From Cenococcum geophilum (lineage: Eukaryota): a stretch of DNA of 64,000 nt. Position 1 is the stretch's first letter; every line of letters begins with the position of its first letter. The notes below the pieces were generated by a model. The model made no database searches. It was not told the origin of the DNA and saw nothing but the letters and a program-made list of their open reading frames with translations. Where the stretch lies: NCBI GenBank assembly GCA_050273025.1, contig CP158635.1, positions 2,666,001-2,730,000 of the forward strand, given 5' to 3'. The translations under genes and the position numbers were made by a program. This document shows positions 1-48,966 of this stretch, one piece after another.

Positions 1-2956
1 GTATAAATTCTTAATTATAGAAGTAAAATACTTTAAACTAATTATTACTATTAAGGGTGTCTATATAGACCCTAAGAAAGTACGTATAATTACTAAATAG
101 TAAGCCCCTAACTGCATTAAGGATATATAAGCCTTCCTTAGTTTCGCTAACTTCTATCGGAAATTTATATATAACTTCTTAGGCGTAGTAGCACTACTTA
201 TAGTAATAATACAAACGAAGGGCCTTTCTATAAAAGGAAGAAAAACGCACCTACGTTTTACCTAGACGCCTAAATATAAGAAGGCGTTCTAAGACCTTAA
301 AAACGCTTTCACTAAAGCACCTATCCTAGCTCACTTTATACTAGGATAATAACTCTACCTTAAAACTAACTCCTTAGACCACATTAATGTAGGTATCCTC
401 TCCTAAATAGGTAATAACGGCCTCCTCTACCTAGTCACATTCTACTCGTCTAAGCTTATACTATAAGAGTATAACTGTAAGATCTATAATAAGGAACTTC
501 TCACAATTATATAAGCGTTTAAGGAATTCTAACTAGAACTCTCCTTAGCAGAACTTAATTAGCTAACTAAAGTCCTTATAGACCATCGAAATCTTAAATA
601 CTTTATAATTATAAAGCAGCTAAACTAATATTAAGTATACTAGAACGAGTTCCTCTTTAGTTTTAACTTTAAAATTGTATATAGACTAGGAGTATAAGGT
701 ACTAAACCTAATAGCCTAATACGCCGCTTATAAGACCTTCCTTAGTCTAAAAATAACCCTTATAATTAGTTCCAATAATAGACGATTCTAAAAGCACGAA
801 ATTTAGCCCTAGGCATATTACCTACATTAGAGCTAACTATACCTCAGCTTTATACCACAGAACTAAAGTTACCTCCTAAAATTAACAAGCTTATTACTAC
901 GGCATATAACACCTCTATTAACCTATTACTATATTAACTTATTACTATAAAGACCGCTAGCGCCCATATACTGCCTATTAACCTCTAAAGCTTAGGCTAG
1001 ATTAATATAGCAGCCTTAGAAGTAAAAGAGAACAGGCTCTATTATAGAGGCCGCCTATTTATCCCTAACTTAGAAAATCTATAACGGCAACTAATCTAAA
1101 TGGCCTATAACCTCTAATTAAGCAGCTACCTAGGTAGAGGAAAAACCTACAAGCTTCTTAGCCGATACTACTTCTAGCTAAAAATAATAGACTTAGTTAA
1201 ACGCTTTATAGGCGCCTACCACAGTTATAAGCGCGTTATGGCCTTTAATATAAAGTACTAAGGACTACTATATCCTCTACTAGTACCTATACAACGATAG
1301 GCAGATATCGCTATAGATTTCATTATTAACCTACCACCCTATAAACGACACGGCCGTACCTATAAGAACATCCTTATAATAATATACTAACTTATAAAAG
1401 AGCGCCACTATATCCTAACCAAAGGCGTAGCTGTTAGTGACATTACTAACGCCTTCCTTCGCGAAGTTTACTAACTATATAGGTTACCTAACTTAATTAC
1501 ATCCAACTAAGGCATATAATTTAACTCTAATGTATAGAGATAAATCTACCAACGCCTTAGCATCTCTATTAAGATATCTATATCCTTTTACTATAAAACT
1601 GCTAGGCAACCGGAAAACGCTAATGGTAGTATAAAAGCGTACCTACGATAGGTAGTTACCTATAGTCAAAATAACTAGGTAGATTACCTCCTACTAGGTA
1701 AATTCGCAGCAAATAACTACACCTTAACCACTATAGGACTTACCCTATTCTTTGCGAATAAGGGTTATTACCCCCAATCTAGTATAGAGCCACTAAAACC
1801 TATTAATAAGAACCTACTATATAGAAAACGCCTTAAGATGCTACTTGCCGACTAGCATATAGACTATATAAAAAATCTACTTAACTACTATAAGGGAGAA
1901 ATAGCCTAGGCTTAAGCAAAGTAGGCCTACTTCGCCGACTATTATAAAACGCCACCACTAGAGATACGTATTAGCGACTAAATATAGCTAGATACACGCA
2001 ATATCTTTACGTAGAGGCCTATAAAGTCACTCGATTATAAAAACCTCGGCCCCTATTTAATTAAATAAGTTATTAATAAGGGAGCTGTATATAAGCTAGA
2101 ACTCCTACTTACCTAGCTACCCGCGGGATATAGCCTATATTTTACCTATAGCTACTACACCTCTATTAGCCTAACCCCTTACTAGGGCAGATATAGCCTA
2201 AACCCCTACTAGTACTAATCTAAGATAAAAATGAAGACGAGAACCATAAGGAGTGGACCGTTGAACGAATTATTAACTCTAAATACTCTAGTAAAGGTAG
2301 AGGACGACAGCTCTATTACAAAGCTATATATATAGAATTTGACATAAATTAGCTAGAATGGCAACTATAGGAAGACTTTAAAAATGCAAGGGATTTAATT
2401 AGCAACTTTTACTATACGAACCCACATAAACCGGGCCTAAGTAGAGATTTTATACCTAATCCTCTATGGGAGCCCTTATAGAGTTAAACCGTTATATATT
2501 ACTATATAAGGGCAAATTGCCGTTAAATTATGGTAAAATGCGATTACGTAACCAGAATATTATTAAGATATCTAGGAACTTTAACTAGCGGTTAAAGTTA
2601 TCTAATTAGTTGGATTTTTAGATACTAAGCCCTATTATATAACATTGTTTTAAGCCTTTAGCAATACCCCCCCTTCTTCTTTTCTATACCTTAAGTGTCC
2701 CTTCTACATATATATAGTAACCACAGCGTCGCCGGAGCTCCGCCTCTATAGGAGGGGGGGTAGTATTACAGAACCCTACCGTAGGGGCCTCTATAGGAGA
2801 GCCCCGTGCTCTTGCATACACCTCGCGTATAGCTTATGTCAGCTACGCGTAGGTATATCACCTCCTTACGCCCTCGACCCTTACGATCGATCGCGCAACG
2901 TCTTGTAGACTCCTTAAATACATACGCTCTGTAGCCACTACCCTTGTTCCGTGACA
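1..2956 (+). mobile_element. Ty3/Gypsy (chromovirus-like) LTR retrotransposon A, 3' part (end of RT, RNase H, integrase, chromodomain, 3' LTR), RIP-inactivated
   Basis: RIP-reverted motifs: FLGFANFYRKFI (~135-170), IYDKELL (~482-503), integrase D(IA)xDFI (~1303-1326), and chromodomain-like EEWTVERII...W (~2248-2370). Polypurine tract GGAGGGGGGG at 2751-2760 is followed by the LTR. The 5' end lies outside the window. Confidence 0.9.
2764..2956 (+). repeat. 3' LTR of Gypsy A (193 bp)
   Basis: Starts TATTACAG (RIP of TGTTAC) just after the PPT and ends GTGACA. A different RT coding sequence resumes immediately after. Confidence 0.8.
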
Positions 2957-3598
2957 CCAACTATATAACTATAAGATTAAGGTTAAGTAGGGCAAATAAA
3001 ACACCCTTAGCTTTAGCCCCCTCTATAAGTAGTTTATTACTAAATTATAGGCTATAAAGTAGTATCTTATTAATAACCTAAATAAGGGCTTTATTAAGCC
3101 TAGCTAAGCGCCTTTTACCTTACTTATTCTCTTTATTAAAAAGCTAAATAGAGGACTCCGCTTCTATATTGACTATTATAAGCTAAATAATATAACCTAT
3201 AAGGACTGCTATTCGCTGCCCCTACTTAATAAGACTCTAGCCCAAATAAGTAGAGCTAAGGTTTTTATAAAGCTTAATATCCGCTAGGCCTTTTACTAAA
3301 TTAGGATAAACCTTAGGTCTAAAAATCTTATTATATTTTAGACCTATTACGGAACGTATAAATATAAAGTACTTCCTTTTAAACTAACTAATAGACTAGC
3401 TACGTACTAGCGGTATATAAATAATATACTCTTTAACTACCTTAACGACTTCTATACGGCCTATTTAGATAATATTATAATCTACTTTAAGAATAAGCTA
3501 GAATACAAGAAGTACGTCTATAAAGTCCTATAACGGCTTTATAAGGCCGGTCTCTAGGTTAATATTAAGAAGTTAGAGTTTAGTGTTAAGTATATAAA

Positions 3599-3670
3599 TA
3601 ATTAAACCTTTTTAATTTTTTATTCTTTTATTACAGAGAATATCCGATTCGAACGGATGTGATTTTTCAA
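3599..3670 (-). other. 72-bp foreign insert in the RT of Gypsy B, resembling the 3' half of a mitochondrial tRNA (Ser-like) plus AT-rich trailer (putative NUMT)
   Basis: Interrupts TATATAAA|GTAC (uninterrupted homologue at ~38081-38092). Minus strand reads ...CATCC-GTTCGAATC-GGATATTCTCTG, i.e. a T-arm with canonical T-loop and acceptor 3' strand. Confidence 0.6.
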
Positions 3671-5197
3671 GTACTTAGGTTTTATTATTAGTATAAATAA
3701 AATTAAAGCCAACCTAGAGAAAACGGCCGTAATTAACTAGTAAGTACCCCTATGGACCGTAAAGGGGGTATAATTATTTTTAGGTTTTTGTAACTTCCAC
3801 TAACGCTTTATTAAAAACTATAGTAGGATTGCCTGGCCTCTTAACCGTCTTACTAGAAAAGACTAGCCCTTTTACTTTAACGCTATATATAGGTAGGCCT
3901 TTAATAGGCTTAAAAAACGGCTAGTATCGGCTTCCTTACTTACCTATTTTAACCTAAAACGGCCCTTAATACTAGAAACTAATACCTTTAATAGCGCAAT
4001 AGCTAGTATTTTTTTCTAGAAGTAACTAGACGGAGAATAGCACTCTATTATATACTATTTAAAGACTATAATAGATACTAAGCTAAACTACTATATCCAT
4101 AATAAAGAAATGCTAGCTATTATCTCTAGCTTTTAGCACTAGCGTATATAGCTAGAGGGGACCCCTAAGCCCATTAAGGTAGTTTTAGATTATAAGGCCT
4201 TAGAATACTTTATAATAACTAAGGCCCTTATAGCCCGGCAGGCACGCTAGACGGATATTTTATCTTAGTTTAACTCCTTCATTATATATAGACTAGGCGC
4301 TATAAACTATATAAATACTCTTATAAGGCGTAAATAAGACCTAGATAACTAGATAGCTATAAAGATCTTATTACGGACCTAGATGCTACTATAACTAAAA
4401 TACCTTAACCCTTAAATATGGGCAGAACTAAGTACGGACTCTTTAGGCGCTAAAATATATCTTATTAACTCCTTTAAACTTAACCTTATTAATAAACTAC
4501 TATAGGCTAACTAAATAACCCCCTCTTTATAGGAGTATCGCAAAAAGGCAAAGAATATTACTAGCCTATAGTCCCTTAAAAACGGACTACTTAAGAACTA
4601 GGAATAGCTAGTAGTAGTTAAAGAATAGAACTTATAGACCTGGCTTATTACTAAAGCTTATACCTAGGTCTCTATAGCCTACTTTAGAAAAAATAAGACC
4701 TATAAGATTATTAGTAACCACTACTACTAGCCCGGAATAGTTATAAATATTAACCGCTATATACAGAACTACAACAACTGCCGCAGATCTATAATTCCAC
4801 GAGATAAGACCCTAGGACTATTAAAGCCACTCCTAATACTAGAACGCCCTAGTAGTGTATCTTTATAGACTTTTATAAACTACCTATGGACCATAATAGA
4901 TACAATATAGTTATAATCCTAGTTAACTACTTTGGCAAGCGCCCGTTCTTAATCCCCTATTATAAGAATATTAATACTAAAGAGGCGGCTTAACTATATA
5001 TCTACTACGTCTACCAAATTTACGGACTACTAGATACTATTATATCCGATTATAGGCCGTAGTTTATATTAGCTTTCCAGAATAAGTTTACCTAGATCTT
5101 AGGCATTAAGCTAAAGCTTTTTATAGTATACTACCTCCAGATAGATAGTTAAACGGAAATTATAAATTAATACTTAGACTAGAGACTTTAGCCCTTC

Positions 5198-5299
5198 TAT
5201 AAGAGTATATATATTAGATCCCGCCGCGCTTACGAACAAGTTCGCAAGCACTCTATATCTTTTTAGCCATATAGCGACGTAGAGGTAGGATACGTTATA
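5198..5299. mobile_element. Very short solo LTR (102 bp) inserted in the Gypsy B integrase
   Basis: Ends TATAAG...GTTATA (RIP of TGTAAG...GTTACA). 5-bp TSD CCTTC (5193-5197) / CCTTT (5300-5304). The homologous site is uninterrupted at ~39615-39625. Confidence 0.75.
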
Positions 5300-6372
5300 C
5301 CTTTATTAACTACTTCTAAGATAACTAGGCTAAACTACTACCTCTAATAGACTACGCCTAAGCGACCCTACCCTATATAAGCTTTAACTGGGAAAGACTA
5401 GAACGACCCCAGACTATATACGAAAAACTATCTTATAAGGAAGCCTAGTAGTACGCTAAGCACTTATAAGAAGCCTAAACGGTAGCCTATACAAATCTAA
5501 AAAAGGCCTAAAAATTAATATAATAGTAGGCGAATAAATATAGGTAAGAGCCTAACTTTACCGTAGGAGATATAGTCTGGGTTATAATAAAGAACTAGAA
5601 GACAGAACAACCTAGCTATAAGCTAGACTATTAGATAGCAGGACTGTATAAGGTCCTTAAAAAGATAGGTAACTTATATAAAGTAAAGCTCCTAGATTTA
5701 ATTAAAGTTTACTCTATTTTCTCTTCGGATAAGCTACGGAAAGCCGTAAATAACCTATTACCTAGATAAAAGAATAAACCTCCACTGCCAATTTAAGTTA
5801 ATAGCGACAATAAATGGGAAATTAAAGAAATACTAGCCTATAAGCTTATAAGGGGAACGTTAAAATATTATATTAGTTAGAAAGGATACGACTTAGACCC
5901 TACTTAGTACCTTATATAGAACTTTATAGGTAGCCCCTATAAGCTTTAGAAGTTTTATAGCCGTTACCCCAACAAACCTAGACCCCTAAAGTACCTCAAT
6001 AAGTAGATAAAGTGCTAAAATAATAAAGATAATAAGTTGCCTATTAAGTATAAAGATAAGAATACCCTATGGATATATAAAGCCTAAGGGCAGGCTTTTT
6101 TAGAGGGGGGGGTAATGTTACGGCGCTAGTGGAAACTAGTAGATTGTGGCTAGTAGATATCGGTAGATTATAGCGGATAGTCATAGACAGTTTTATATCG
6201 TTTTAGACAGTTTTAGAGGATTGTATATAACGTTAAGCGGCGCTACCCTCCGTCTTTCTTTCTTTAGCTTTGGATCCTCGTTTATAGACAATCCAATTAT
6301 ATAGGCTTACGCGACCTATTTGCTGTACTTGTGCCTCGATTGACTGAGTCGCTAATAGCTATTATTGTAATT

Positions 6373-7432
6373 ATATATCTAACGCGTTACTAGAAATACT
6401 ATTAATAGTACGCTCTTCCTTATTAGCTTAATTCTACTTATTCTATAGATCTAGGCTAACTTTATCTAAGTTTATAAACGTAGTAATTACTACTAAATAA
6501 GACTAGGTTATAGGCTATTCTTACAACAGTATATTTTAGTTTTAAATTAATTAGTATATTAAGTGTAATGTGTAGGTAATATATTTAGATAAGCTGTCTA
6601 ATAGGGCTTTAATAAAGGTTATAGGAAATATAAGCCTAATATTTAACCTATACGCGCTAAAAGGGTTAACTAAAGAGTAGTTATATAATTTTATAAATTA
6701 CTTAAATATTAAGTTATATTAGCAAAGAGATAATCTAATAAATAAAATAAAATAGATATAAAATAGCTCTTGGTTTTTTACTACTTCTAATAAAGAAAAA
6801 AGTAAACGCTACTTTAAATTAAAAGATAAAGCGTCCATAAGATAAGGTAGAACAAATAAATAGAGAAGCGTATTTTATAAATAATAATATAATAGAGCTT
6901 AAGGAGGAGTATAAAGGCGTATTACCTAATAATTTAAGCGCTACTAACTAGGCCGCTACTATTACTTACTAGTTAAATAAGCGGCCCTATATTATAAAAT
7001 TACTTAATAGCCTATATAGAGATCTTGCGGAACTAGTATACCTTAACTAGCGGATTAATCTTATTTTAAAATTTTATAAAATTATACTTATATTAAAAGG
7101 CTTAATAATAATATACGCCTTCTAACTTGTTAAAAGAGATAGCTATAAAGTAGGGAGATTTAATAACGCCTTATTTATTCCCTTTAGAATATAACCTATA
7201 CTAGTATCTATTTTATATAGGTAATAAGCGTTTACCTCACTAATAGAGGATTTTCTATTAGAGTCGGCTAGCTAAGATAATAGATTATATTAAGGATAAA
7301 TATCTCTATTTATTTATACTAGATATAAAAATCATCTATAGTAATATGGTATATAAGGAAAGCTATATAATATTAAGTAGCGTTCTATACCTTAAAAGCT
7401 ATACCTAAATAGTTTATAAAATTAAGTATTAG
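6373..7432 (+). pseudogene. RIP-degraded 3' half of a DUF3435 tyrosine recombinase (Starship captain-like)
   Basis: RIP-reverted translation: CIRRVTGNAVD, then an intron (GTACGC at 6408, GCTAAC at 6455), then ...ERDQVMGHS..IFQFxINQHVKCDVQAMYLDKPSDRALIKVMGNMSLMFDPRAP..., and C-terminal PLECDP.QCLFCIGNERLP...RIF.WSRPAKMMDHVE..HL...C....C......L..V.HLKSH...VH. These match DUF3435 captain motifs as I recall them. Confidence 0.8.
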
Positions 7433-7545
7433 ATTTTAAAGACTAAATCTATATAGCCTTCTTATCTTTATTATAAAAGAAGTATACTCTATTTAAAGCG
7501 TAAAGCGTCCTACTATTTTATATTCTAGTTCTACTTTATATATTT

Positions 7546-7930
7546 ATAGCAAGGGTAATAGCGTTTTATTATAATAAGAAGGCGAATAAGTTTAGTTCTA
7601 GCTATAAAGATATAGAGGTTATAGTAGATTTACTTCGTTCTCTTTTAAAATTTTATAAACGAAGACTAGAGGAAATAATTAGAGGCTAAAGAATCTTAAA
7701 AGAAGATATTAGAGACTACTATATAGCCTATAATTATTGTAAATAACTGTATTATTATAGATATAAAAGCCGCCTTCGACGCCGCTATAAATATTACTAG
7801 TAATATTAGAAATATCTTTCTAAAATTTATAACAGAGTCCGCCTAAGATACCGCTATAAATACCTTAGATACTATATATAGCACCGTAGCTATAGATACC
7901 GCTATAATAAATATACTTTAGAAGATATAA
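7546..7930 (+). pseudogene. RIP-degraded short ORF of unknown function directly downstream of the captain
   Basis: RIP reversion gives plausible protein-like text (e.g. EAAFDAAVDVAGDIRNIFPEFVTESARDAAVDALDAM). The motif (G)ATACCGCTATAA recurs. No family recognised. Confidence 0.35.
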
Positions 7931-8447
7931 TAGTAGAGATATTATATCCCATGTAAGATCGTAGCAACTTATAACATTTTTCAACAATGCGTATATATAG
8001 ATCGAAGTGAAGATAAATTCATTCATTATACATTTGCGCAACAGCATACTTAGTATATAAATAACGCCAATAACTAAGTAATAGGGGAACTAAAATCTAA
8101 TTAAGAGTAAACTCTATATAAGTGCACTAAATATTAAAGTTTGGTAAGTTTAAAGCAGTTCCTAAATAAGTAGTATATATATAATATATAGCAACTAGTC
8201 GAAGTAGAAGTAGTCGATACACATCCCGTAACAAAGAACTCTAGTGTATATCGCATAGGTGAAACAAACTTCACCAAAGTGAGATGCCGGTCACACCTCC
8301 ATCAAAGATCCCCAACACTCTCCACTTTGAGAGGAGAAATGAAATAAGACTCAAATTGATGCACTAATTTCATATACGCAAAGTCTAACAATGTTCCTTC
8401 CATAATGGATTCACCCATTACTCAACCTATACGCAGAAGATGTCTTT

Positions 8448-9282
8448 TCAGCGACCAAAACGCAAGTCATTGAATTTTATGTCCCGCTCCGACAAAGCCC
8501 ATGGGTAATACCGTTGCCCAGGCGGCTGCACAGGGATATTCCTCAGGTATGAATGATGTGGCGCATAGTTTTTCGGCGGCGGACCATGGGAAGCAATCTG
8601 TCTCTCACCTTTGTGGTGCGAGGCTTTTCGTGGTGATGTTCGACGGCCAAGACCTCCTAGAGCCCTAGAAGGTTCCATGGCTCTCTCCGCACCTGGAACT
8701 CGCGGATAGACTGGCAGTCTCACTAACACCAAACGTTGGCCTTGGTGTTTCACATAACATGTAGGCCGTGGTGGCCGAGTTGTTCGGGGTTGATTCCAAC
8801 TTGGATATGAGGTAGTTGGCAAGTGGCTTACCGCTATGGTAGTGTCGTCTTTCCTTCTTTGACTGCCTCCTCGAATGGAAACTGGGCTGATGCTCCAGTA
8901 ATGATCTTTACCTATGGAAGAAAACTTCTGGTCGACTATAGCTCCATCGAAGAGTGATGGAACCATCTCGCGTTGGTCAGCAAGTTGCCCCGAAGGTTTT
9001 AAGAGTGAGTGAGTCTGCTCCCGAAGAGGTTTGTATGAGCCGAAGAATGCTTGTAAATTCGCTTCGGGAGTATCTACGATTTCTGGAATTGCGAAAACTG
9101 GGATTTAATTGTGTTAGGAGTTGGTGATCGGGATTGTAGTTTCCCGTATTCTGCACACCTAGTAGGTACAACGTTATGTCCGAGGTTTTAATAGTATCTT
9201 CATACCATTTCTTCAACAAGTTAGAGTGGTTAGTGTAAAAAGTTGTGGCTAGATCAGTTGAATTCACTGTAATGTTTTGCAC
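8448..9282 (-). CDS. Hypothetical protein(s) or degenerate gene (adjacent ORFs 8977-9282 and 8448-8966)
   Basis: Consecutive minus-strand ORFs in sequence lacking the RIP signature. No domain recognised; exon structure unresolved. Confidence 0.3.
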
Positions 9283-9457
9283 TCAAGGGCCAAGGAGAGT
9301 TAGAGTGGCGCAGTAGTGTGGGACTTGGAGTCTAGTAAACACGCGGCATCCTAACTTATAAAGGAGACAATTCCCATAACCGAATATGTGAAATATTATA
9401 TTCTGTGTATATACAACGTAATGCGGACTTCCTGCACAATGTGTTAGAGTAACAATT

Positions 9458-12400
9458 TGTCGACCTGAATCGAAGTTCCTTACTACCATCGTAATACTGT
9501 CTGACGACCTAGATCGTCTATACGAACTATGTCTTAGTTGTCTCGTATCTTGAGCTCGTATGTCTCATCGAACGTCTAATTACCTGTTTCTCTTAACTAT
9601 GACCTACTACATGACGACGTCGTCGTTATTATATTTGGGACCTACCTAATGTATATAAGAGAGCTTCTAGAGCCCTCTTTAATAAAACAGAGTTCTCATT
9701 CCTGATTATCCGTTTAACAGTTATAAGCCCAGGCCGTCTACTGCATTATCTTTAATTCCAAAGCCTTTATTCCTATTAATTTTAATTATTATCTTAATTA
9801 TAGACAACTACCCACAATAACTTCTTAATAAGAAACCTCTCCTGTTATTATATCATCCGTTATCCTTATAAGCCCAAACAATTAGGACGAATAAATTAAG
9901 GTTATTAAGTTAAAAGCAAATAATAATTATCTCTAGAAGTATATTAACCCATTAACACCTAAGACCGATCTACTATAGCTTAAAGAACCTATTCGTGCCT
10001 TACCCAAGGATGCCAATAGCTAGGGGAAGATAAAGCTCGCGGACCTAGATAAGGAGGAGAAGGAGGAGCTCTGTATGCTTAAAGCCGACCATAGGGACAA
10101 TATAAAGCTATACAGAAAACAGTTATCAGCTCTTAATACGTTGCGTAGCTATATCCTAAGCTCCATCTCACGTACCTACCTTATCTATATATTTAAATGC
10201 ACTACCACCTATAACATCTTAGTATCTCTTAAGAAGAGAATTGCTCCGACTAACTATGCCTAAAAGCTTTAAATAGCCACTTAATATGCAAGGCTTAAGA
10301 AGGCGCCTTAGAACTAGAACTTTAAGATCTAGTTATAAGAGTAGGAGAAGGTATACACTAAGTGCAAGGAGCAAGCTCTACCTAAGGTAGATGGTAATTG
10401 TTTAGTAAAAGACTTCGCGTATATAGTCGAATTAATTATACTAAGCTGGTTAGAATATTGGAAGAACGAGCTTAATAAGCGTAAGTGGGAGAAGAAGACG
10501 CTTTTTATCTTCTTCGAACTGGTTAAAATATACTAAAACCACTGTTGTACGGACCTCGCCTAGAAGGGCAAAACCCCATAAGGAGGATTATTTGGAGTTA
10601 CCTTTAAAGACGACTTACTGAATTTAAAGCCTAAATTAAAGCCTTAATCGTTAGCAGATAAGTAGAAGAAGGAGAGGTAACTGCTGCTAGAGTGCCTATG
10701 CGGAAAACGTTACTACTTTAATAAGTGCTGGTATATTATAGAGTTAATTCCTCGCCTATTATGGTTTAAACCAAGTAATAAAATTTAGAAGAAGGTGGAT
10801 AAGAAGATTACTAATATAACGCCTAAAATTAAGGCTTATATTAAGCAAATTAAAAAGGATAATTAAGCTAATAAGGACGATTAAGCTAATAAAAAGCTAA
10901 AGGAAGGCAGTAATTAGAGCTTATAAGGGCCTACTAGAAACTTTATAGTTTATTATATAGGATTTAATAACATGACTTCTAATTACGAGCTTTGCAATAG
11001 TATAATTCTTAACTTAGAAACTAGCCTATACGTCTTTAACAATAGAGCTAGGTTTATTAGCGATATTAAGCCTATATTAGAACGCGTCTATATAGGCTTA
11101 TATATAGAAGAAATCGTAGGCTATAGTACAGCTATAGTTACAATTAATAACCTAAAAGGGAAGAGACAGATACAGCTTTTAGGAGCAGCCTTTATACTAG
11201 GCTTTTATACTAACTTAGTATATCTTAATAAGCTTAATAATAAGGGAGTTTACTAGAATAATAAAGAGAACACTTTTTTCTATAGCGACGACGAGACGTA
11301 CGCCTACTATGGCCGCCACTATGGTTAAAATACCATTAAATATAATAAGCTAAAAAGTAACTTACCTAAGGCTTTATTTATGACTTAATTAAAGCCAATA
11401 AAGCATTTATTAAAGCCTCTACTAAATTAGGTAGAAGGCTATATATAGCACTAGCAAATAGGCCATGTAGGAAAAGACGCAATTAAGCAACTACCTTAAT
11501 TAGTAACGGGCGCGATTATAAAAGGCCTAATAACGGTAGAATGTAAATCGTATGGAGTAAGTAAAGCTTATAAGGTGGTATCTAAAAGACCTTTAACTCG
11601 GTCACTGGTTCCTTTTTATAAAATCCACCTTAATTTAATACCCGGAATAGTCATATTTAATAGCGATAAGTACGCGGTATACTTCCTTAATAACGCAACG
11701 TGAATGAATAAGGTAGAGATAATAGCTAAGAAGTCGTCCCTTACCTAAATTATTATCAAATATTACAATATTATCAAACAACGATATAGCTTTAAGGTAG
11801 CCATTATCCATATAAATAAAAAGACATCTCTTATAGGCGAATTTAAGGAATAAGTAGCTAAATAAGGAATTAGTATTAAAAGATTAGCACCTAATACTTA
11901 ATCACAAAACGGTCCAGCGGAATAATCTAGGGGGGTAATTATATAGAAGGCTCGGTGTATAAGAATTAAGGCTTATTTACTAGAGGAGCTATATTCTAAA
12001 GTCTATAAAGCAGCTACTTATCTACTTAATCGAACGCCTAGTAGAAGACTTAGGTAGAAAACACTATTTAAAAGAATCTAGTTAGCTATAGGTATATTAC
12101 TACTAAAACTAAATATAGGCCACCTACGAGTCTACGGCTGTAGGGCCTACCCTCTTAAATATAATATTCCACGCCTAAATAAGCTCGCGCTAAGGGCCTA
12201 TATAGGATATCTGGTAGGATATAATTTAATAAATATATTCCGAATCTATATTCCTAGTTAAAAGAAGGTTATAAGAACTAGAGATATAAAGTTTAATAAG
12301 TGGTTACTTTATAATAACTTATAGCTAGATCTAGCGAATATACTCTAAGTTAGAACTAACCAAATATTAAAAGTTATTAATATTTATTAAATATAGGATC

Positions 12401-14812
12401 TCTAAGACAAATTGGAATTATTATTTAATAAAAGTAATAAGACTTAAGACGAGATTTAAGTTAATACTAAAGGGAGATAATAGGTGGAATCTGGTGGAAA
12501 TAAGGAAGAGCCTAATATTAAGAGTAGTAAGTAATAAGATTTAAGCTCTAAAGACAACTTAGCTTTAGGGCTTTTTACTTTAGATAAGATACTAAAACCT
12601 AACTTACCGGAGCCTCTACTACCGTCCTTAAATACCTTAGTAAAGAAGCCGCACTATATCCTAGTTCTAACCAATAAAGCTAAGCTAAAGAAGAAGATTA
12701 ATGGTGATATAGGAGAGCAAAACGTGGTTAAAGGAAAGAGACTTAAAAGACAATTAAAGATCTACGTAGGCTTTCTTACTAACGTCACCAACTAGAGCCT
12801 TTTAGCTTAAAGATTAGCCTTTAATATAGGGCTTACATTTTATAAAAAGCTGCACTGCAATTAGCTTCTACCGCTACTTAGAAATTAGAAGGAGCTTTAA
12901 AGACATTAATATAAGAAAGAGTTCGCGGCTACTACCCAAAAGGAATACACGGACCTTTAAAATTAAGGAACGTTTTAAGTCATTAATAAGACAATCTATA
13001 CCAAAACAGTGCCTATTATCTAGGTATTTATATATAAAACTAATATTAACGGATATCTAATAAGGTTTAAAGCTTGTCTTTACGCACGAGGTAATTTATA
13101 AAAGTTAATTTATAAGGATACCTATACCACAACTTTAGCAGCAAGATCGTTTAAAGCCTTAATAGCTATTATTGTAATATTTAACCTAAACTACTAGTAA
13201 GGCAACACTATTAATGCATTTATAAATAGTGTAATTAATAAGGTTATGTATATTAAGTATCCAGATAGATTTCTAATTAAGGGTAAGTGCCTACTTCTCC
13301 GAAGAGCCCTTTATGAATTAAGGCAATTACCTCTGCTATAGCACGGTAACTTAACAATAACGCTAAAAAAGGAAGGCTTAAAGCTAGTAGCGGAGGAGCC
13401 TTACCTATATTACAACGATTAGCTAATAGTCTTCTTCTATATTAACAATATTATAGCTATATTTAGAAAAAAAGACCTATTTAAGCTTTAAACCTTTAAG
13501 GAGCACCTTATAAGAAAGTATAAGATAAAGGACCTAGGTAACCTTACCTAGTTCTTAGGAATTTAAATTATCCGTAATAAAAAGAATAGAAAGCTCTGGC
13601 TTAGCTAGAATTCCTATATTAATAAAATTACGATAAGCTTTAAAGTTAAAGATTATTATAAGATATATACACTAATAGGTATTAAGGAACTTAAGCCTAA
13701 TCTAAAGTAAGCCTCTAAGTAGGATACCTACGCCTATTAGAGGAAAGTCGGATCTATACTCTATATAGCTAATATCACTTATCTAGATATAGTGAGAATA
13801 GTAAGTAAGCTATTAGAATTCTCACAAAATCCGTCACCAATTCACGATGTAGCTGCTATAAGGGTAATTACCTACCTTAATTAAACTAAGACTCTTATAA
13901 TTAAGTACTTAAAGGAGAATATAATGAACCAGATCTTCGCAAGGGCCAGCAACACATTATTTAGCAACAACCCAGTGAGTAGAAAGAGCATAGAAGGTTA
14001 TCTATTCACCTTATTTAGAGGGCTAATTAACTGGCGATCTATAAAGCAGAAGTTAGTAATAAAATTAAGTATGAAAGTAGAGCTTCTAGCCCTGTCGCAT
14101 GCAGCTACCGAGTCAATTTAGTGGTAGCAATTCTTTAAAGAAATTGGATTTAACCCTAATAAGAAGTAAACGATATATTGCGATAACCTATAAATAATTT
14201 AACTACTCACTAAAAGCAACGCGGAGCTTAATACTAAGCTTCAACACGTCAATATTTATTACTACTAGCTCCGCCAGGAAGTTCGTAAAGGAAGCATTAA
14301 TATTAAATAGGTGCCTACTGCGGATATAACAGCAGACGGCCTAATGAAGGCTCTACCTCGTTAAAAGCACGAGATATTTGTTTAGTAATTAAACCTCATT
14401 AATATTAAGGATCTAATTTAATTTAATTTAAATAATATTTAGGCAAGGTAAATATATAGAGGATTTCCTTTAACTTAACACCAAATTGCTATCGTAACTT
14501 TTTAGTATTTTCTATAGCAGCCCAGAAGGCTCTATGCAGCTAGGGGGGTATATCAACCTAAATCAAAGTTCCTTACTACCATCGTAATACTATCTAACGA
14601 CCTAGATCGTCTATACGAACTATGTCTCAGTTGTCTCATATCTTAAGCTCGTATATCTTATCGAACGTCTAATTACCTATTTCTCTTAACTATGACCTAC
14701 TACATAACGACGTCGTCGTCATTATATTTGGGACCTACCTAATGTATATAAGAGAGCTTCTAGAGCCCTCTTTAATAAAACAGAGTTCTCATTCCTGATC
14801 GTCTGTTCAACA
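9458..14812 (+). mobile_element. Complete Ty1/Copia LTR retrotransposon (5355 bp), RIP-inactivated
   Basis: LTRs at 9458-9719 and 14551-14812 (262 bp each), 5-bp TSD CAATT (9453-9457 / 14813-14817). GTTATAAGCCC follows the 5' LTR; PPT AGGGGGG at ~14542. Gag-PR-IN-RT-RH order: WHQQIGH (~11446), SQNGPAE (~11902), FFYVDDI-like (~13431), RHVDI.YHWLRQEV-like (~14242). Confidence 0.95.
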
Positions 14813-19849: not shown

Positions 19850-21027
19850 ATAACCTGGAATTTAATTTATAATATATTCGTAATATGTTACGAATGGAAT
19901 CTTATAGATAGAGTTTGGATTTAAATTTTAATAGGATTCTATATCACTTTAGAACGTGTTTATAACACGTTAGGTAGCGAAAATAAAAGTTATTAGTTAA
20001 ATTATAATGTTTATTAAATTTTACTAACTTTATCTCTTTTTAATAAACTCCCTTTATATATTTTATAATTATAATAAAAGAAAATCTTTATTTTTAAAAA
20101 TAGTATAATTATATAGTTAAAAAAACCTTCTAAATTTTATTATATTGTATAATTTTAAATAAATATTAATAATTTTTTAAAGTATATAATTTTTAAGCTA
20201 ATATTATTTTTTATTTTTTATTTTTTAAAATATTTATCTAAATAATATATAAAATTAATTATAAAATTAGTTAATATAAGACTTATTATTTTAAATTAAG
20301 TATTAACTAATAACTTTCTATAGGTAACTATATTTATATATATAAATAAGGCTTAAATATATAAATAGTAAAAAGTAAAAAGTAAAAAAATTAATTTTTG
20401 TTAAATAGAATAAAGAGGTATTAAGATTTCTTATAGTCTTTTTTTCTATTTTTTTACTATTTAATAGTTATTAGTATCTTAGTATTTTATTAAATAACTA
20501 TAAATTCCTAATTAAAACATTTATAATTTATTAATATATAATTACTAATATATATTAAGCTGCTTAAAATGGATATATATATATATAAAACTATAGCGCT
20601 ATAGTCTAGACGCTGTGTATATAGTATTATATATAGTATTAAACGTTATATAATTAAATAAGTATAAAAAAGGCCTAAATATAAGTATATTTTAATAGGA
20701 ATATAATAGGAATATATTTAGAACGTATTTTATATTTAATATACTTATTTTTATATACAAGCCTTTATTGCCTCTAGTTAAATCCTTTTTTCTATATTCT
20801 CTAGCTCCTTTACCTTTAATTTAATCTCTATTTTATAAAGTTTAAGCCTTTAGCGTCTTTCCTAAATATCCTAGTTATTGCTTAAGGCCTAACGCTTTAG
20901 TAACTACGAGAGATTAGTGCTAATACGCCTAGAACGTATTAGTAACTAGTTATATATATATTAGAATATAAATATACCTTATAATTTCTTAAATACTATA
21001 AAGGATAACCTAAAACGCGATATAGAT

Positions 21028-28985: not shown

Positions 28986-30123
28986 ATATCTAGCACATTA
29001 AAGAGCTATATAAGCTATCTGCAACCCATTCTAAACGTATTCTAACAGTTTAGGCCGCCTATAAAGCCTACCTAAAAATAGAAAGGCTTTCTAAGGGCGT
29101 CAATGCTTTCGTTATAGTAAGTAGTTCTAAACATATTTAGAACACGTTACTAACGTAATACTAGCGTAGTGACGAGGTGGATTTAACTATAGAGGAGGTT
29201 TTCTATCGGTATAATGTCTCGCCTAATCTAGAGAATCCGGTACTATATAGTGTAAGTAAATAAATATATTAGGTTTGTAATATATTGCTAATATATTTAT
29301 AACGCGTTTAGAAGAAGGTTGGAGATCGCGGCGCCCTTAGAAACTATATAAAGAAGTATAGCCTTGGAACCAGGAACATTAGAAAAGGAGGGGCTCCTTC
29401 TATTAAGAAGTAGGAAGAAGTAATAGGTATATATTCTAAACGTGTTCTTAACCTATTTATAACTAGTTACTAACCTATTACAGCCTTCTATTCCGCCATT
29501 ATAGCTATACATAATTAGAACGTATTAGGAACTACTTCTAAATATAATCCTATTAGTCTAGGCCGCTCTACTGCTACCTAACCCCCCTATACCCCCACCC
29601 TAGCTCCCCCTAGCCGCCCTTCTAGGACTACTGCCCCATAATTAACGGCTCCCATTTAAAAGAAGGTTATGCCCATCAGATTTAAGAGTAGGCCTTAAAA
29701 AGGCGATATAAGATATTCCTAATGTATTTATAACATGTTCTAATTAAGTTCCTAGTATAACTTTTTAAGAATAGTTACTCTGCTTAAGGAATTGGGTGCT
29801 AAGGTTCCATATACTAAGTATTCAGACACAACTTCTACAGGTAAGTTAATTTAGAACCCGTTTTAAACCGGTTAAGAATATATTCTAAATTTATTATAGC
29901 CTACTTATTTAAGGGTTGTCTTAATTAGAGCTACTTTATTAATAATGGGTTGGATAATACTAAGGCTCCTACTACTTCGGCTCCTACTACTCTAGCTCCT
30001 ACTAAGACTTCTAAAAAGCGTTTAAAGAAGTCTAGTTTAAAAGGTTTAAAGGCTATAAAGAGAAATACTACTAAACCTGCTAGACTTACGGAGGAGGATA
30101 TTGCGGCGGATCTATTTTAATAA
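28986..30123 (+). pseudogene. Accessory multi-intron gene of MULE X2 (putative C2H2-type zinc-finger protein)
   Basis: Homologous, exon for exon, to 18730-19849. Start codon mutated ATG>ATA. Confidence 0.55.
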
Positions 30124-30705
30124 ATAACCTAGAATCTAATTTATAATGTGTTTATAACACGTTACAAATTAAATCTTATAGATAGAGTTTAGACTTAAAT
30201 TTTAATAGGGTTCTATACCACTTCGGAACATATTTATAACATATTAGGTAGCGAAAATAAAAGTCATTAGTTAAATTATAATATTTATTGAAATTTACTA
30301 ACTTTAGCTCTTTCTAATAACTCCCTTTATATACTTTATAATTCTAATAATTTAATTATAAACTAATTATTATTTAAATTTTAATAAAATAAGAGTTTTA
30401 ATTTTTAAAAATAGTATAAATATATAGTAAAAAAAGCCTATTAAATTAAATTATTTTATAATAAATATAATTTTAAATAAAAATTATATATTTAATAAAA
30501 ATTTAAAGTATATTTACTTTAAGCTATTATAATAGTATTTTTTTTTAAGTATTTATTTAAATATAAAAAATTATTAAACCTTTAAATAATATATATATAT
30601 ATAAATAAAATATAAAATTAGTTAATATAAAACTTATTTTATTTAATATATTTTTAATTAAGTATTAGCTAATAGTTTTTATAAGTAACTATATTTATAT
30701 ATATA

Positions 30706-30852
30706 GTAGTAGTTCTTTAATTAACGTCTAATACGGATCCTATCTAGGCCCACGCAGACTACTCCGTCATAGGGGGAAAACTTATATATTTACAGGAAGA
30801 AAACCCTGCAGTTTAGGGGAGGAAAAACCCTATAAGCTACCTTAGTCGGATA
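30706..30852 (-). mobile_element. Short non-LTR (LINE/SINE-type) 3' fragment inserted in X2
   Basis: Absent from X1 (~20330-20345). Flanked by a 15-bp direct repeat ATATTTATATATATA (30691-30705 / 30853-30867). Minus strand ends in an (ACT)n-like tail. Confidence 0.55.
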
Positions 30853-31288
30853 ATATTTATATATATAGATAAGGCTTAAATATATAGATAGTAAGTAGTA
30901 AAATAATACATTTTTTTTAAATAGAATAAAGATAAATGTTTAGATTTCTTATAGCCTTTTCTCCTATTTTTTACTATTTAATAGTTATTAGTACCTTAGT
31001 ATTTTATTAAGTAACTATAAACCCCTAATTAAAAGATTTATAAATTATTAAAATATAATTACTAATATATATTAAGCTGCTTAAAAAGGATTTATATATA
31101 TAGAACTATAGTGCTATAGTCTAGAGACTGTATATATAGTATTATATATAGTATTAGACGTTATATAATAAAACAATCATTAAAAAAGGCCTAAATATAA
31201 GTATATCTTAATAGGAACTTAATAAAAACATATTTAGAACATATTTAGAACGTATTTAGAACGTATTTTATATTTAGTATACTTATTA

Positions 31289-34799: not shown

Positions 34800-37700
34800 T
34801 ATTACGGCACCGTAACGCGTAACCTGGACAGGGAGCCTAGTTAGGGGTTTAGCTAAGGACTTGGCGTTATAACGCGTATATATTACGCCTCTACCTCCTA
34901 TACATACCTCTCCTCTTCTCCTTAGCTTAGTATTTTCGTAATACAGCATTCTATAAGCTTTGGTTCAGAGGCATTTATATAAGCCATAATATTATACTAA
35001 GCTTACCCTACCCTACCTAGGAAGGCCTTAATAATATTCTACCCTAAAAGAAACTTCGTCTACAACGACGCGTTAACGCGCTATACTTAGACACTAAAAC
35101 AACTCTATATTACCTAAAAAGGCCTAGATAATATCCCACCTTATAAGCTAGACAGAACTAGACCTATACCCCCGGAATTAAAACCAAAGTGTATAATACC
35201 AACAAACCTTAGGAAGCTAACGATGGCGCCTAAAGTAAGCTTATTTAAGAGAGCTACCTCTACCTAAGAGGAACCTAAGATCCAATTAGGATTAGAAATT
35301 AAAGATAATAATAACATTGTAGATATACGCGAGTAGATTTATACCCTCGCAGCTAGCTAGGAAGCTAATTATCTTAAAGCGAGAAATATATAAGAGACCC
35401 TATAAGAGATCCTAGAAAGCCTTACAGCCCTATAAAATAGCCCGGCTTCCCCTTTTTAAAGCCCTAGCCGACCTATTTACTTTACTAAATATAATATACT
35501 AGGGAGTACGGATACAATAATAAAGCAATTAAAGTCCGTTAAGCTCCCTAACCCCCTACCACTATCTAATAGGATAGACCCTACCTTTAAGAATTAGAGG
35601 ATTTAAGTATAAGGAAAGCTCCGCGTTAACTATAACTATTTCCTTTCTAAAGAAGCCAAAATACTCTACCTCTTTAGTTAAACTACTAGGGACGCCTAAC
35701 AGCACCTCCAAGCTAAGTTTAAGGACGATTCCCCTGTCTAATTTACATCTATTAATAAGATAATACGGCACCTAGCAGCTATCTACGTTAACCTAAACAA
35801 AGTATAGGACGCCTGGTACGACTATAATCGCCTAATAATAAAACTAAACTAATCCTTTACTAAATTCTAGACTTAATTCCTATACCTTACGGAAGAAGGC
35901 TAGGTTCCCCTTAAGAACTACCGATTAGACCTATATAATAAGCTAATAATTCGGCTATAAGAGAAGATTGCTATAACCTTAGATAACCTACCGACTTATA
36001 ATAGACTCGCAGCCCGTTACCTATTATTAGACTTAAAACTAAAGCGGATTAAAGCCCGTCCTAATCGGCAGAAGCGACTCTATAGCAACTAAAACTTACC
36101 AACTATACCTATAGGAGCTAGAGTAGAAAAATAAGTTACAACTACTCTTACACTAAGAGCGGTTATAACTACGCACCGGCAAGCGACGCCCGACTAGCCA
36201 CGTATCACGCCATTAACTAGTGTTCACCGCAATACTCCGATTAACCCTGCCTTAGCTACGTACTATAACTGCGATAAGGAGGGCTACTTTGCCTTGTCTT
36301 GCCCGGAGCTAAAGGATATAGGCGATATTAAGGAGATAGAGGAAGGAGAGACGTCTAATAAGTTGGGAAAAGAAGAACCCTAGGGAAAAACTCCCCCCTA
36401 GGGTACCCTATTAATCTTAAAGAGATTAATCTAAGTCAGTTAATGGGTGGAAAATACTTTACGGTTCTATATACAGTATCTTAAAATGGATATAGTGTTA
36501 ACACAACCGCCCTTATTAACACTGGAGCAAATGGTTTTGCCTTTATAAATACTGCCTATATAAATAACGTTGCTAAGTTTCTAAATATAAAAGCCACTAG
36601 ACTAGAGAAGCCTGTCTAAGTAAAAGGATATAGCGGTTAGGCCGGTAAGCTGGTTATCTACGTCCTAAAGTTGCATATTGCTCTTAACAGACGACGCCAG
36701 TATAATATCCCCTTTTGCATCCTAGACCTAGGGTCCCATGATATAATCCTTAGCCGAAAATAGATATCCTATTTTAATATTTAGCTGAATATATAATGAA
36801 GACAATTTGTCTAGCCAGAGGATAGACCGAAATTACCTTCCTTTACTAGGGAAATCCAAACCAATCACAAGACACTAGCCGCGAGGGCTGACCCTACCTA
36901 TTAGCAGGATGTTAGGGACCGCGACCTAGCCTTTGCTTAAGAAGATGCCCGTCGCAAGGCCAGAAGGAACTCTTTTATACTAATAAAGATACTCCCCTGG
37001 AGCGCTACGGTTGATAAGGACTCTATATACGGCAGTAGGATAGATAGCGATATAGACGACGTCTAAATCACGTAGATCTAACTAACATGGAAGAGAACAT
37101 ACCAATAGGACATAAGAGATGACCTCTAAAAGATGCGATAGGAGCTAAAAGGAGCGATAACAACGCCTTTACCCTAGAAGCCCCTAAGGTCCCATACACC
37201 CCCATTATTACGCAACCCCCCTATAGTAGATATCGCGGCAATCAGCGCTATAGTATTCCACTTTAATATGTATAGGAGGGACAACGAGGTCTTTATAACT
37301 AGCTTATATAAAATTAACTAGATTATTAATAAGAGGGAAGAAAAGCCAGCTAAGGAAACTAATAAGGAACTAGTTAAACGCCTCTTCCTTACTACTTATA
37401 CGGGATACAAGAATGCATTCTTAAAAGTGGCTTTGGACAAGTTACCTCCTTACTAGACGTACAATTATAGGATTTAATTAGAAGCCAATAACTCGCTAGG
37501 ATATAGCCCTCTATACTAACAATTAATAGATAAGCTAAAAGCAACAAAGTAGTACTTAATTAAGAACCTTAATAAAGGGTTTATCGAGCCAAGCCAAGCC
37601 CCTTTTACTTCCCCTATCCTATTTATAAAAAAGCCTAATAGAGGCCTTTACTTCTATATCGACTACTAAAAGCTAAACGCTATTACTTAAAAAGATTAGT

Positions 37701-40700: not shown

Positions 40701-40908
40701 TTAAAGGGGGGGGTGATGTTACGGCACTATAACGCGTAACCTGGACAGGGAGCCTAGTTAGGGGTTCGGCTAAGGACTTAGCGTTATAACGCGTATATAT
40801 TACGCCTCTACCTCCTATATATACCTCTCCTCTTCTCCTTAGCTTAGTATCTTCGTAATACAGCATTCTACAAGCTTTGGTTCAGAGGTATTTATATAAG
40901 CCGTAACA
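34800..40908 (+). mobile_element. Complete Ty3/Gypsy LTR retrotransposon D (6109 bp) nested in the fold-back MITE
   Basis: 192-bp LTRs at 34800-34991 and 40717-40908, TSD AGTAT/GGTAT. Gag CCHC knuckle CYNCDKEGHFALSC (~36261), ALIDTGA protease (~36508), intact YLDDILIY (~37952), RH, integrase and chromodomain. PPT AAAGGGGGGGG. Confidence 0.95.
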
Positions 40909-48579: not shown

Positions 48580-48825
48580 GTCGTGTGGCTCTGGCGACGG
48601 TCGTGTGGCGATGACGACGGTCGTCTAGCTCTGGCGACGGTCATCTGGCTCCGGCGACGGTCGTCCAGCTCTGACGACGGTCGTCTAACTCTGACGACGG
48701 TCGTCTGGCTCTGACGACGATCGTCCAGCTCTGGCGACGGTCATCTGGCTCCGGCGACGGTCGTCTAGCTCTGACGACGGTCGTCTGGCTCTGACGGTCG
48801 TCTAGCTCCGGCGACGGTCGTCTGC
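48580..48825. repeat. 21-bp minisatellite (GACGGTCGTCTGGCTCTGGCG-like), ~11 units
   Basis: Direct reading; each unit contains the near-palindrome GACGACGGTCGTC. Confidence 0.9.
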
Positions 48826-48966
48826 TGGCTGTCGTTCTGGTGTCTTCCTAGGTAGGGAGGATGTAAGGAAGGGTAAAAAATGAGGTGGCTACCTAGGTGT
48901 ATATAGGGGGTATACTTGGCAGAGGCACCTGTAGAGGCTATCGGGAATATAGCGGGGACCCGATGC

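Follow-up and report, generated by a model that had tools for sequence, protein, structure and literature searches.

Positions 6347–7456 (+ strand) of the window, the 64,000-nt stretch of Cenococcum geophilum DNA analysed here (GCA_050273025.1, contig CP158635.1, positions 2,666,001–2,730,000, forward strand), hold the 3′ ~47% of a DUF3435 tyrosine-recombinase gene that was killed by RIP. This relic is very likely a dead, 5′-truncated copy from the clade of family 1 (Phoenix), interrupted by a Gypsy element and belonging to a short unit that was multi-copy when RIP acted on it. It retains approximately residues 396–746 of a protein of ~746 aa, and spans approximately positions 190–415 of the 418 of the PF11917 (DUF3435) profile. 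It is a pseudogene of the DUF3435 family and not a working member, and has no present-day function. A preliminary description had placed the gene at 6373 to ~7432; homology in fact begins at 6347 (to within ~±6 bp), and the stop codon in the family register is the TAG at 7454–7456.

The identification was proven through a natural, un-RIPed counterpart. Back-translation of the 10-residue motif RPAKMMDHVE retrieved 20 metagenome loci, among them L010, a contig of 1476 bp that encodes ...SCIRRATGNAVD, a 70-nt intron, and ERDQVMGHSYDGIFQFYINQRVKCDVQAAYLDEPSDRALVKVMGNMSLTFDPLAPKE ... QCLFCMGDERLPYQQRIFCWSRPAKMMDHVENKHL. A RIP-aware DNA alignment of L010 with 6347–7305 contained 958 aligned pairs (699 identical) and 24 gap columns. 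C>T and G>A changes numbered 112 each, beside 16 reverse transitions and 19 transversions; with RIP-type changes set aside, the two sequences were ~96% identical. The alignment score of 1463 was 15 times that of the best control, the controls being 111 other 2.2-kb tiles of the window on both strands (mean 48.4, SD 13.9, maximum 98.5). The L010 exons matched PF11917 at E-values of 4.2e-29 (profile 214–415) and 3e-21 (profile 96–210), both exceeding the 25.8-bit cut-off, which bears out the earlier reading of the relic as a gene of the DUF3435 captain clade. The protein strings previously obtained by reverting RIP agreed with the L010 gene almost letter for letter, including the 70-nt intron and the QCxFC...RPAKMMDHVE tail.

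Standard searches passed over the relic. It contains no long ORF, as the preliminary description stated; the six frames of 6100–8003, read with X at stop codons, matched no Pfam family at E ≤ 10, and none of the 112 candidates returned by word-based homology searching for the X-read frame 6474–7052 reached that level. A RIP-aware protein scan with P0001, by comparison, gave three HSPs (90.4, 47.2 and 88.5 bits), of which the third reached the final residue (746), against ≤38.6 bits in the reversed-sequence control. Across the whole window, the relic was the sole place to score above that control, and blastn found no second copy of it in the window. Because relics of this kind escape standard searches (ORF callers, Pfam and word-based search all missed this one, which was recovered by RIP-aware reading), captain-type counts in RIP-active, repeat-rich fungi are probably too low.

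The relic opens with the last ~20 codons of the penultimate exon (6347–6407; ...GLEQPLSQSCIRRATGNAVD in L010), where the alignment starts at position 494 of the reverse complement of L010. A 70-nt intron follows at 6408–6477, conserved with L010 (reverse-complement positions 555–624); its 5′ GT is intact, and its 3′ end has changed from ...GTAG to ...ATAA, with loss of the acceptor site. The last exon (6478–7456) comprises the catalytic C-terminal region of DUF3435, a linker and a Cys/His tail, and ends with the stop codon TAG. Comparison with L010 and the family showed that the tail motif QCLFC...RPAKMMDHVE, located at 7202–7294, reads (stop)YLFY...RLAKIIDYIK here. In a walk along 304 codons against L010, 139 were the same, 123 were missense, 29 had become stops and 13 were hit by indels. 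Four indels (−2, −1, −20 and +1 nt) give rise to three changes of reading frame.

The active-site set (R, K, [H/Y]xxR, H, Y) is not intact in the relic. The first Arg and the Lys belong to the missing 5′ half, and the codon of the family-invariant Tyr, the presumed nucleophile, was found at 6543–6545 as TAA, just as previously noted; it is TAT in L010. This change is a T>A transversion and not of the RIP type. All 11 family proteins share the Tyr in question, that of ...FQFYIN..., and the family alignment conserves the R / K / xxR / H / Y pattern. By analogy with the Starship captain HhpA, for which this activity has been shown, intact relatives presumably cut and rejoin DNA by means of this conserved Arg/Lys/Arg/His/Tyr active site.

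With L010 taken as the unmutated reference, the relic carried 224 RIP-type changes and 35 other substitutions, 16 of which were reverse transitions. The mutated fraction depended on context: 116/120 at CpA (97%), 69/115 at CpG (60%), 22/124 at CpT (18%) and 17/101 at CpC (17%). Conversion had affected roughly half of the C and G sites in the relic, and changes in the opposite direction only 16 of 498 A/T sites. The relic thus displays the one-directional C>T / G>A change with CpA preference by which RIP is recognised. Measured as the RIP index, (CpA+TpG)/(ApC+GpT), values were 0.19 for the relic, 0.59 for the adjoining LTR-like piece, 0.35–0.47 for the Gypsy end and 0.15 for the 3′ flank (7457–7948). 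Along the sequence, the index was 0.14–0.20 at 6400–7900, ~0.7 at 7750–8350 and >1 at 8200–8950.

Upstream of the relic lies a nest of RIPed Ty3/Gypsy elements, all on the + strand. The 3′ part of a first element, "A", occupies 1–2400 (right limit approximate), where the X-read frame matched RT_RNaseH_2 (E 4e-15) and RT_RNaseH (~266–625). A chromodomain-like reading was also seen in its translation near 2200–2400. The pol region of a second element, "B" (3000–6000), showed Pfam domains in its X-read frame: RVT_1 (~3135–3689), RNase H (~3894–4271), Integrase_H2C2 (~4647–4790) and SH3_Tf2-1 (~5566–5745). This element is homologous to a second copy at 37490–40729. Next, as read from the sequence, 6090–6346 contains the purine tract AGAGGGGGGGG (~6102–6112) and an LTR-like piece (~6116–6346), which is more lightly RIPed and runs up to the start of the relic. 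This piece has no partner within the window and lacks clean TG...CA ends; because 6116–6346 has no second copy there, the LTR label derives from its position.

The recognisable gene ends exactly where the LTR-like end of a Ty3/Gypsy element starts. Only the 3′ part is present, abutting the 3′ end of that element, which fits the earlier proposal that Gypsy DNA split the captain. The first 493 nt of L010 found no 5′ half in the window (best tile 79, next 76.5 and 65.5, mean 39.8), nor did the RIP-aware protein scan of the window find an N-terminal half. We infer that a Gypsy insertion into the recombinase gene pushed the 5′ half outside the window. Deletion or rearrangement could also have truncated the gene, as neither the 5′ half nor a Gypsy target-site duplication was seen.

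The 3′ flank (7457–7948, + strand) is as saturated with RIP as the gene and is probably non-coding. A second RIPed ORF had been described at 7432–7930. RIP there is indeed like that in the gene, but the ORF did not hold up: even the best frame is interrupted by 8 stops in 163 codons, no Pfam family matched, and 27 of 125 AT-rich tiles were as good or better in stop density. Three short metagenome ORFs (P0032–P0034) matched 7540–7843 at E-values of 4.5e-8 to 4.4e-7. Against 7440–8300, the best of the 477 downstream ORFs of the 20 metagenome loci reached 26.3 bits, below the reversed control of 31.7, and DUF3435 proteins scored no better than the reversed control against 7460–8300.

Saturating RIP stops sharply near 7948, ~490 bp past the stop codon. 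A transition zone with a weak RIP signature follows (7949–8350), leading into an un-RIPed island (8200–9100). Since saturating RIP ends near 7948 and 8200–9100 is un-RIPed, we place the end of the duplicated unit ~490 bp past the stop. The island contains an orphan ORF (8448–9104, − strand) with a single relative of 172 aa (96% identical) and no family; by homology search, it classes as neither core nor cargo. Among 24 listed sequencing runs, 20 contained part of 6347–9600, and four runs labelled as the same species contained next to none of it; the shares, which ranged from 0.79 to ~0, are not evidence of absence.

The closest proteins, 11 at E ≤ 1e-20, were headed by one of 746 aa from Zopfia rhizophila (66% identity). 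In the starfish study (Gluck-Thaler & Vogan 2024, PMC11162782), tables S3 and S4 file Zopfia rhizophila KAF2194980.1 and others, as well as Paraphaeosphaeria minitans KAF9730231.1, under "tyr", fam01, and Table 1 gives family number 1 as Phoenix. L010 was 66% and 65% identical to two fam01 Zopfia proteins, and the median identity within a family is 35.4% (PMC11162782). By transfer from these proteins, and reading fam01 as family 1, we assign the relic to family 1 (Phoenix). The relatives are multi-copy: two 90%-identity clusters comprise 4 and 3 Zopfia proteins, and the near-identical copies in Zopfia number at least 7, of which two lie in tandem and several at the end of a contig.

We weighed three other explanations against this reading. 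The resemblance might be over-reading, as free T→C / A→G reversion could spell motifs in any AT-rich DNA. A "best ancestor" RIP codon matrix has an expected score of +0.18 per position, and because this expectation is positive, free reversion would match anywhere; the matrix was dropped for that reason in favour of a log-odds RIP model, whose expectation is −0.67 bits per position. Under the latter, the main matches still reached 90 and 88 bits, well clear of the reversed sequences, and the DNA alignment to the natural L010, intron included and 15 times the best control, refutes the objection, which has virtually no chance of being correct. Alternatively, a single-copy domesticated or solo recombinase may have been mutated only by RIP leaking from the adjacent Gypsy repeats. 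RIP can spread into adjoining unique DNA, and the relic directly abuts RIPed Gypsy DNA. However, RIP is heavier in the relic than in either the LTR-like piece or the Gypsy end, and it is saturating over 1.6 kb and then ends abruptly, with no decay over distance. In addition, the 3′ flank has relatives elsewhere, and the nearest relatives are multi-copy in Zopfia. Leakage is therefore very improbable, and of the two causes of RIP raised in the preliminary description, a multi-copy state is the better fit.

The third explanation, also put forward in the preliminary description, makes the relic the captain of a derelict Starship that began left of the window, its cargo being part or all of what follows on the right, gene islands and nested retrotransposons alike. 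Starships carry NLRs, among other genes, and 41 kb downstream, at 48765–49400, there is an NLR-type N-terminal domain (NNH2, E 1.3e-6); the neighbouring ORF at 8448–9104 is an orphan, like much Starship cargo. The gene also falls within the Starship recombinase clade and points rightwards, as a captain defined by its 5′-end position would (PMC9156397). AT-rich, TE-rich DNA is where most insertions of the Phoenix family are found (PMC11162782), and RIPed "derelict" Starships are recognised (PMC11162782, PMC10104507). Against this stands the extent of RIP. Duplication of a whole Starship leads to RIP along the entire element, whereas local similarity leads to local RIP (Urquhart et al. 2023, PMC10104507). 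Here, saturating RIP stops ~490 bp past the stop codon, and the island beyond is un-RIPed, which argues against a multi-copy element reaching that far. A Starship-like region is marked by co-located DUF3723, ferric reductase, patatin-like or NLR genes (Gluck-Thaler et al. 2022); the 124 window ORFs of at least 55 aa included the one NLR-type domain (NNH2) and no DUF3723, ferric reductase or patatin, in a test to which RIPed genes are invisible. The 90 flank ORFs of the metagenome relatives comprised ordinary genes and one NB-ARC+TPR, with no DUF3723, FRE or patatin. As 559 delimited elements stand against 10,212 "solo" recombinases (PMC11162782), cargo does not follow from the presence of a recombinase gene by itself. 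For Zopfia, represented by one genome in that study, 55 "tyr" genes and no elements appear among the rows listed (PMC11162782). Overall, cargo to the right of the relic was not supported, and we consider a derelict Starship of this kind unlikely.

Since RIP saturates the relic, exceeds that of the LTR-like piece and ends sharply, we favour a short duplicated unit over an element covering cargo. In this preferred reading, a DUF3435 unit consisting of the gene and a short 3′ flank, and not a long cargo-bearing element, would have been multi-copy when RIP struck. The extent of RIP serves here as a natural marker of the duplicated unit, and it points to a short recombinase unit over a cargo-bearing giant. 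We read the compact unit entirely from that extent, and a single-copy Starship with paralogues of its captain and 3′ flank elsewhere would look alike.

It is possible, if somewhat doubtful, that the sub-clade of family 1 to which the relic belongs (~740 aa, with the tail QCxFC...RPAKMMDHVE...C.HP.C...HFK.H...VH) moves as compact, cargo-free units of a few kb in the style of Cryptons. Metagenome pairs in unlike flanks (L009 vs L018, 90.6% identity) lost homology 115–135 bp past the stop, in proteins with only ~50% identity to the relic. Several metagenome loci carried a partial tandem repeat of the 3′ end of the gene just downstream. These observations, together with the RIP edge at ~490 bp and the Zopfia copies (at least 7), are clues to compact units. 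If such units exist, they bear on why "solo" recombinases exceed delimited elements 18 to 1. The extent of RIP described here also touches on the nature of "solo" captains.

Compared with known systems, the relic resembles the Starship captains of family 1 / Phoenix (PMC11162782): its counterpart L010 matches PF11917, the nearest proteins are "tyr", fam01, and, as for Phoenix-family insertions, it lies in AT-rich, TE-rich DNA. Unlike captains, it is truncated and RIP-dead, with no element, boundary, direct repeat or cargo tied to it. In addition, in contrast to the usual H/YxxR captain motif, the H/Y position in its sub-clade reads S-C-I-R-R. As with "solo" recombinases and CryptonF, the repeated unit appears to consist of the recombinase gene with short flanks and is multi-copy in a relative, and repeats holding DUF3435 were originally annotated as Cryptons in M. 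phaseolina (PMC9156397). However, CryptonF forms the outgroup of the Starship recombinase tree (PMC11162782), whereas the relic gene lies inside the Starship clade. Derelict Starships and Hephaestus copies are RIPed along a delimited, cargo-bearing element, unlike the relic, in which RIP is limited to the gene and ~490 bp. What they share is the course of events, in which RIP after duplication kills the recombinase gene and remnants persist as ordinary sequence (PMC11162782; PMC10104507). RIP-degraded ("derelict") Starship recombinases have already been described, and the relic is an ordinary derelict element of this type.

The window consists of AT-rich, RIP-degraded fungal repeat DNA with a few islands richer in GC. 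Between 6100 and 8003 there was no long ORF, Pfam returned no match at E ≤ 10 in the six frames with every stop read as X, and, with the best frame as query, a word-based homology search gave 112 candidates, none at E ≤ 10. The captain (DUF3435 recombinase) that the preliminary description placed at 6373–7930 was thus, as claimed there, missed by ORF calling, and it was equally invisible to ordinary annotation. As bait we used the tail motif RPAKMMDHVE (RLAKIIDYIK in the window), back-translated to a 30-nt degenerate pattern with an estimated information content of ~47 bits. A metagenome scan with this pattern yielded 20 loci, and all 20 have the motif embedded in a shared tail at the C-terminus (QCxFC...RPAKMMDHVE...C.HP.C...HFK.H...VH...LR, followed by a stop). 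One of these loci, the 1476-bp metagenome contig L010, matched the window nearly residue for residue when C>T and G>A changes were allowed.

In a RIP-aware local DNA alignment, in which C>T and G>A were tolerated on the window side, positions 494–1474 of the reverse complement of L010 aligned to window 6347–7305 (958 pairs, 699 identical) with a score of 1463. The 111 other 2.2-kb window tiles, scored on both strands, averaged 48.4 (sd 13.9, maximum 98.5). From L010 to the window, C>T and G>A changes numbered 112 each, beside 16 reverse transitions and 19 transversions, together with 24 gap columns (indels of −2, −1, −20 and +1 nt). The mutated fraction was 116/120 at CpA, 69/115 at CpG, 22/124 at CpT and 17/101 at CpC, and 16 of 498 A/T sites were altered in the opposite direction. 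This context dependence is exactly that of RIP. The exons of L010 match Pfam DUF3435 (E 4.2e-29, profile 214–415 of 418, and E 3e-21, profile 96–210), and its 70-nt intron is kept at window 6408–6477. Among its 304 codons, 139 are unchanged in the window, 123 are missense, 29 have become stops and 13 are hit by indels. The tyrosine that is invariant in 11/11 family proteins is TAA in the window (6543–6545), produced by a T>A transversion rather than RIP. The identity of the relic, the RIP-destroyed 3' part of a DUF3435 gene, is therefore proven through its natural un-RIPed counterpart. The intron, the Cys/His tail, the TAA at the Tyr codon and the de-RIPed motifs CIRR.TGNAVD and ERDQVMGH...DVQA.YL...MS...DP.AP had all been read correctly, as the alignment with L010 confirms.

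For the protein-level check, a 'best ancestor' codon matrix was dropped because its expected score was positive. It was replaced by a log-odds model (BLOSUM62 target frequencies, 50% RIP rate, window codon background; expected −0.67 bits per position), with which the entire window was scanned in six frames using P0001, a 746-aa Zopfia rhizophila protein. Three segments of 90.4, 47.2 and 88.5 bits ended at ~6828, ~6931 and ~7451 nt, corresponding to residues 533, 576 and 746 (the last). They were confined to the relic and occurred nowhere else in the window, and the reversed-sequence control reached at most 38.6 bits. As the third segment extends to the final residue, the family's stop is TAG 7454–7456. 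The proposed limits needed correction: the start of homology moves from 6373 to 6347 (± ~6) and the end of the gene from ~7432 to 7456, and four indels shift the frame. Neither the N-terminal 395 residues of P0001 (six-frame log-odds scan) nor the first 493 nt of L010 found a match anywhere in the window. The top background scores in every RIP-aware scan came from 20001–21000 and 30001–31000, which are extremely AT-rich (GC 0.16 and 0.20).

Two RIPed Ty3/Gypsy elements lie upstream of the relic on the same strand. The first retains RNase H (~266–625, +); the second retains RT (~3135–3689), RNase H (~3894–4271), an integrase zinc domain (~4647–4790) and an SH3-like domain (~5566–5745; all +), and has a further copy at 37490–40729. 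Past the pol of the second element, a purine tract (~6102–6112) is followed by a 230-bp LTR-like piece that stops where the recombinase homology starts. This junction fits a Gypsy insertion into the recombinase gene. The earlier reading of a captain split by this element is supported by the abutting LTR-like end, but the window contains neither the rest of the gene nor a target-site duplication nor a partner LTR, so the insertion is inferred. A RIPed Ty1/Copia-like element occupies ~10000–14500 (+), with a gag/integrase-like reading in translation and a retroviral polymerase SH3-like domain at 12082–12258 (E 7.5e-10).

The stretch past the stop, 7457–7948, had been described as a second RIPed ORF. 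It is indeed RIP-saturated, but coding was not borne out: the 163 codons of its best frame include 8 stops, a result that 27 of 125 AT-rich tiles equalled or bettered, and we found no Pfam match, no likeness to DUF3435 proteins and none to the sequence downstream of the 20 metagenome genes. When the best frame was searched with phmmer against 1.84 billion representatives, three short metagenome ORFs (49–121 aa, E 4.5e-8 to 4.4e-7) matched window 7540–7843 over two frames, indicating that this sequence recurs elsewhere. Most simply, it is the non-coding 3' part of the recombinase's repeated unit. Several metagenome loci carry, just past the stop, a partial second copy of the gene's 3' coding end (~100–180 bp, 74–84% identity; ~+371 to +551 from the motif start in L018, ~+303 to +401 in L009, also in L004 and L012), which might have been left behind when one copy inserted into another or recombined with it. 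In the un-RIPed island beside the relic, a 218-aa open frame (8448–9104, −) has no Pfam family and a sole relative, the 172-aa protein P0031 (96% identity); it is either an orphan gene or no gene.

Starships are defined by a DUF3435 gene at the 5' end reading inwards and by flanking duplications, usually with accessory DUF3723, FRE, PLP or NLR genes (Gluck-Thaler et al. 2022, PMC9156397). Cargo to the right of the captain, as previously suggested, found no support in the RIP edge, RIP intensity, metagenome flanks or accessory-gene scan, all of which speak against it. The RIP index, (CpA+TpG)/(ApC+GpT), is 0.14–0.20 at 6400–7900, rises abruptly to ~0.7 at 7750–8350 and exceeds 1 at 8200–8950. 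Urquhart et al. (2023, PMC10104507) showed that a Starship duplicated as a whole is RIPed over its full length, while local similarity leads to local RIP; by this rule, the edge suggests that the duplicated unit ended ~490 bp past the stop. Mere leakage of RIP from the adjoining Gypsy is argued against by the relic being RIPed more heavily than the LTR-like piece (0.19 vs 0.59). The metagenome loci L009 and L018 are 90.6% identical with different flanks, homology being lost 115–135 bp past the stop, and other pairs lose it after the stop in the same way. Among 124 window ORFs of at least 55 aa, none had a DUF3723, FRE or patatin domain, and the sole accessory-type match was an NLR-type N-terminal domain 41 kb from the relic. 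The Starship-with-cargo reading is thus unsupported and mildly contradicted, and a single-copy Starship with paralogues limited to the captain region is unlikely.

The NLR-type match comes from a GC-rich island, where an open frame of 211 aa (48765–49400, −) hits NACHT N-terminal helical domain 2 (NNH2, E 1.3e-6) and probably marks the beginning of an NLR-type gene. In the metagenome locus L007, an NB-ARC + TPR (NLR-type) gene (2193–3897, +) lies downstream of the DUF3435 gene on the same strand. A short window ORF (46324–46563, +) matches DUF6570, a companion of Helitron-type helicases, weakly and just under the cut-off (E 7.9e-5).

Eleven full-length proteins were closest at E ≤ 1e-20, led by two from Zopfia rhizophila (746 and 740 aa; 66% and 65% identity) and followed by Trypethelium, Paraphaeosphaeria minitans and Pyrenophora tritici-repentis. 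The accessions of the closest relatives are listed as 'tyr' (table S3) and fam01 (table S4) by Gluck-Thaler & Vogan (2024, PMC11162782); in Table 1 of that paper, family number 1 is named Phoenix (clade 1). The family assignment was right, and the relic is therefore a pseudogene of the Starship-recombinase clade. In the family alignment of P0001–P0011, the closest relatives read S-C-I-R-R at P0001 ~403–408, where the reported YxxR of clades 1 and 3 is expected, whereas a more distant Botrytis aclada protein reads Y-C-F-R-R, so the motif's first position varies within the sub-clade. As listed in table S3, two of the closest relatives stand in tandem, ~1.9 kb apart (Zopfia rhizophila contig ML994610.1, 326148–328365 and 330270–332731, both +), and others lie within 2–4 kb of contig ends, as multi-copy repeats tend to.

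The relic is an ordinary derelict transposon gene, 'derelict' being the term recommended for RIP-killed copies (PMC11162782); of interest are its RIP-aware detection and the hint that its sub-clade may transpose as compact units. The same source describes Phoenix-family insertions as mostly in AT-rich, often TE, DNA, lists 55 'tyr' genes and 0 elements for Zopfia, and counts 559 delimited elements against 10,212 'solo' recombinases.
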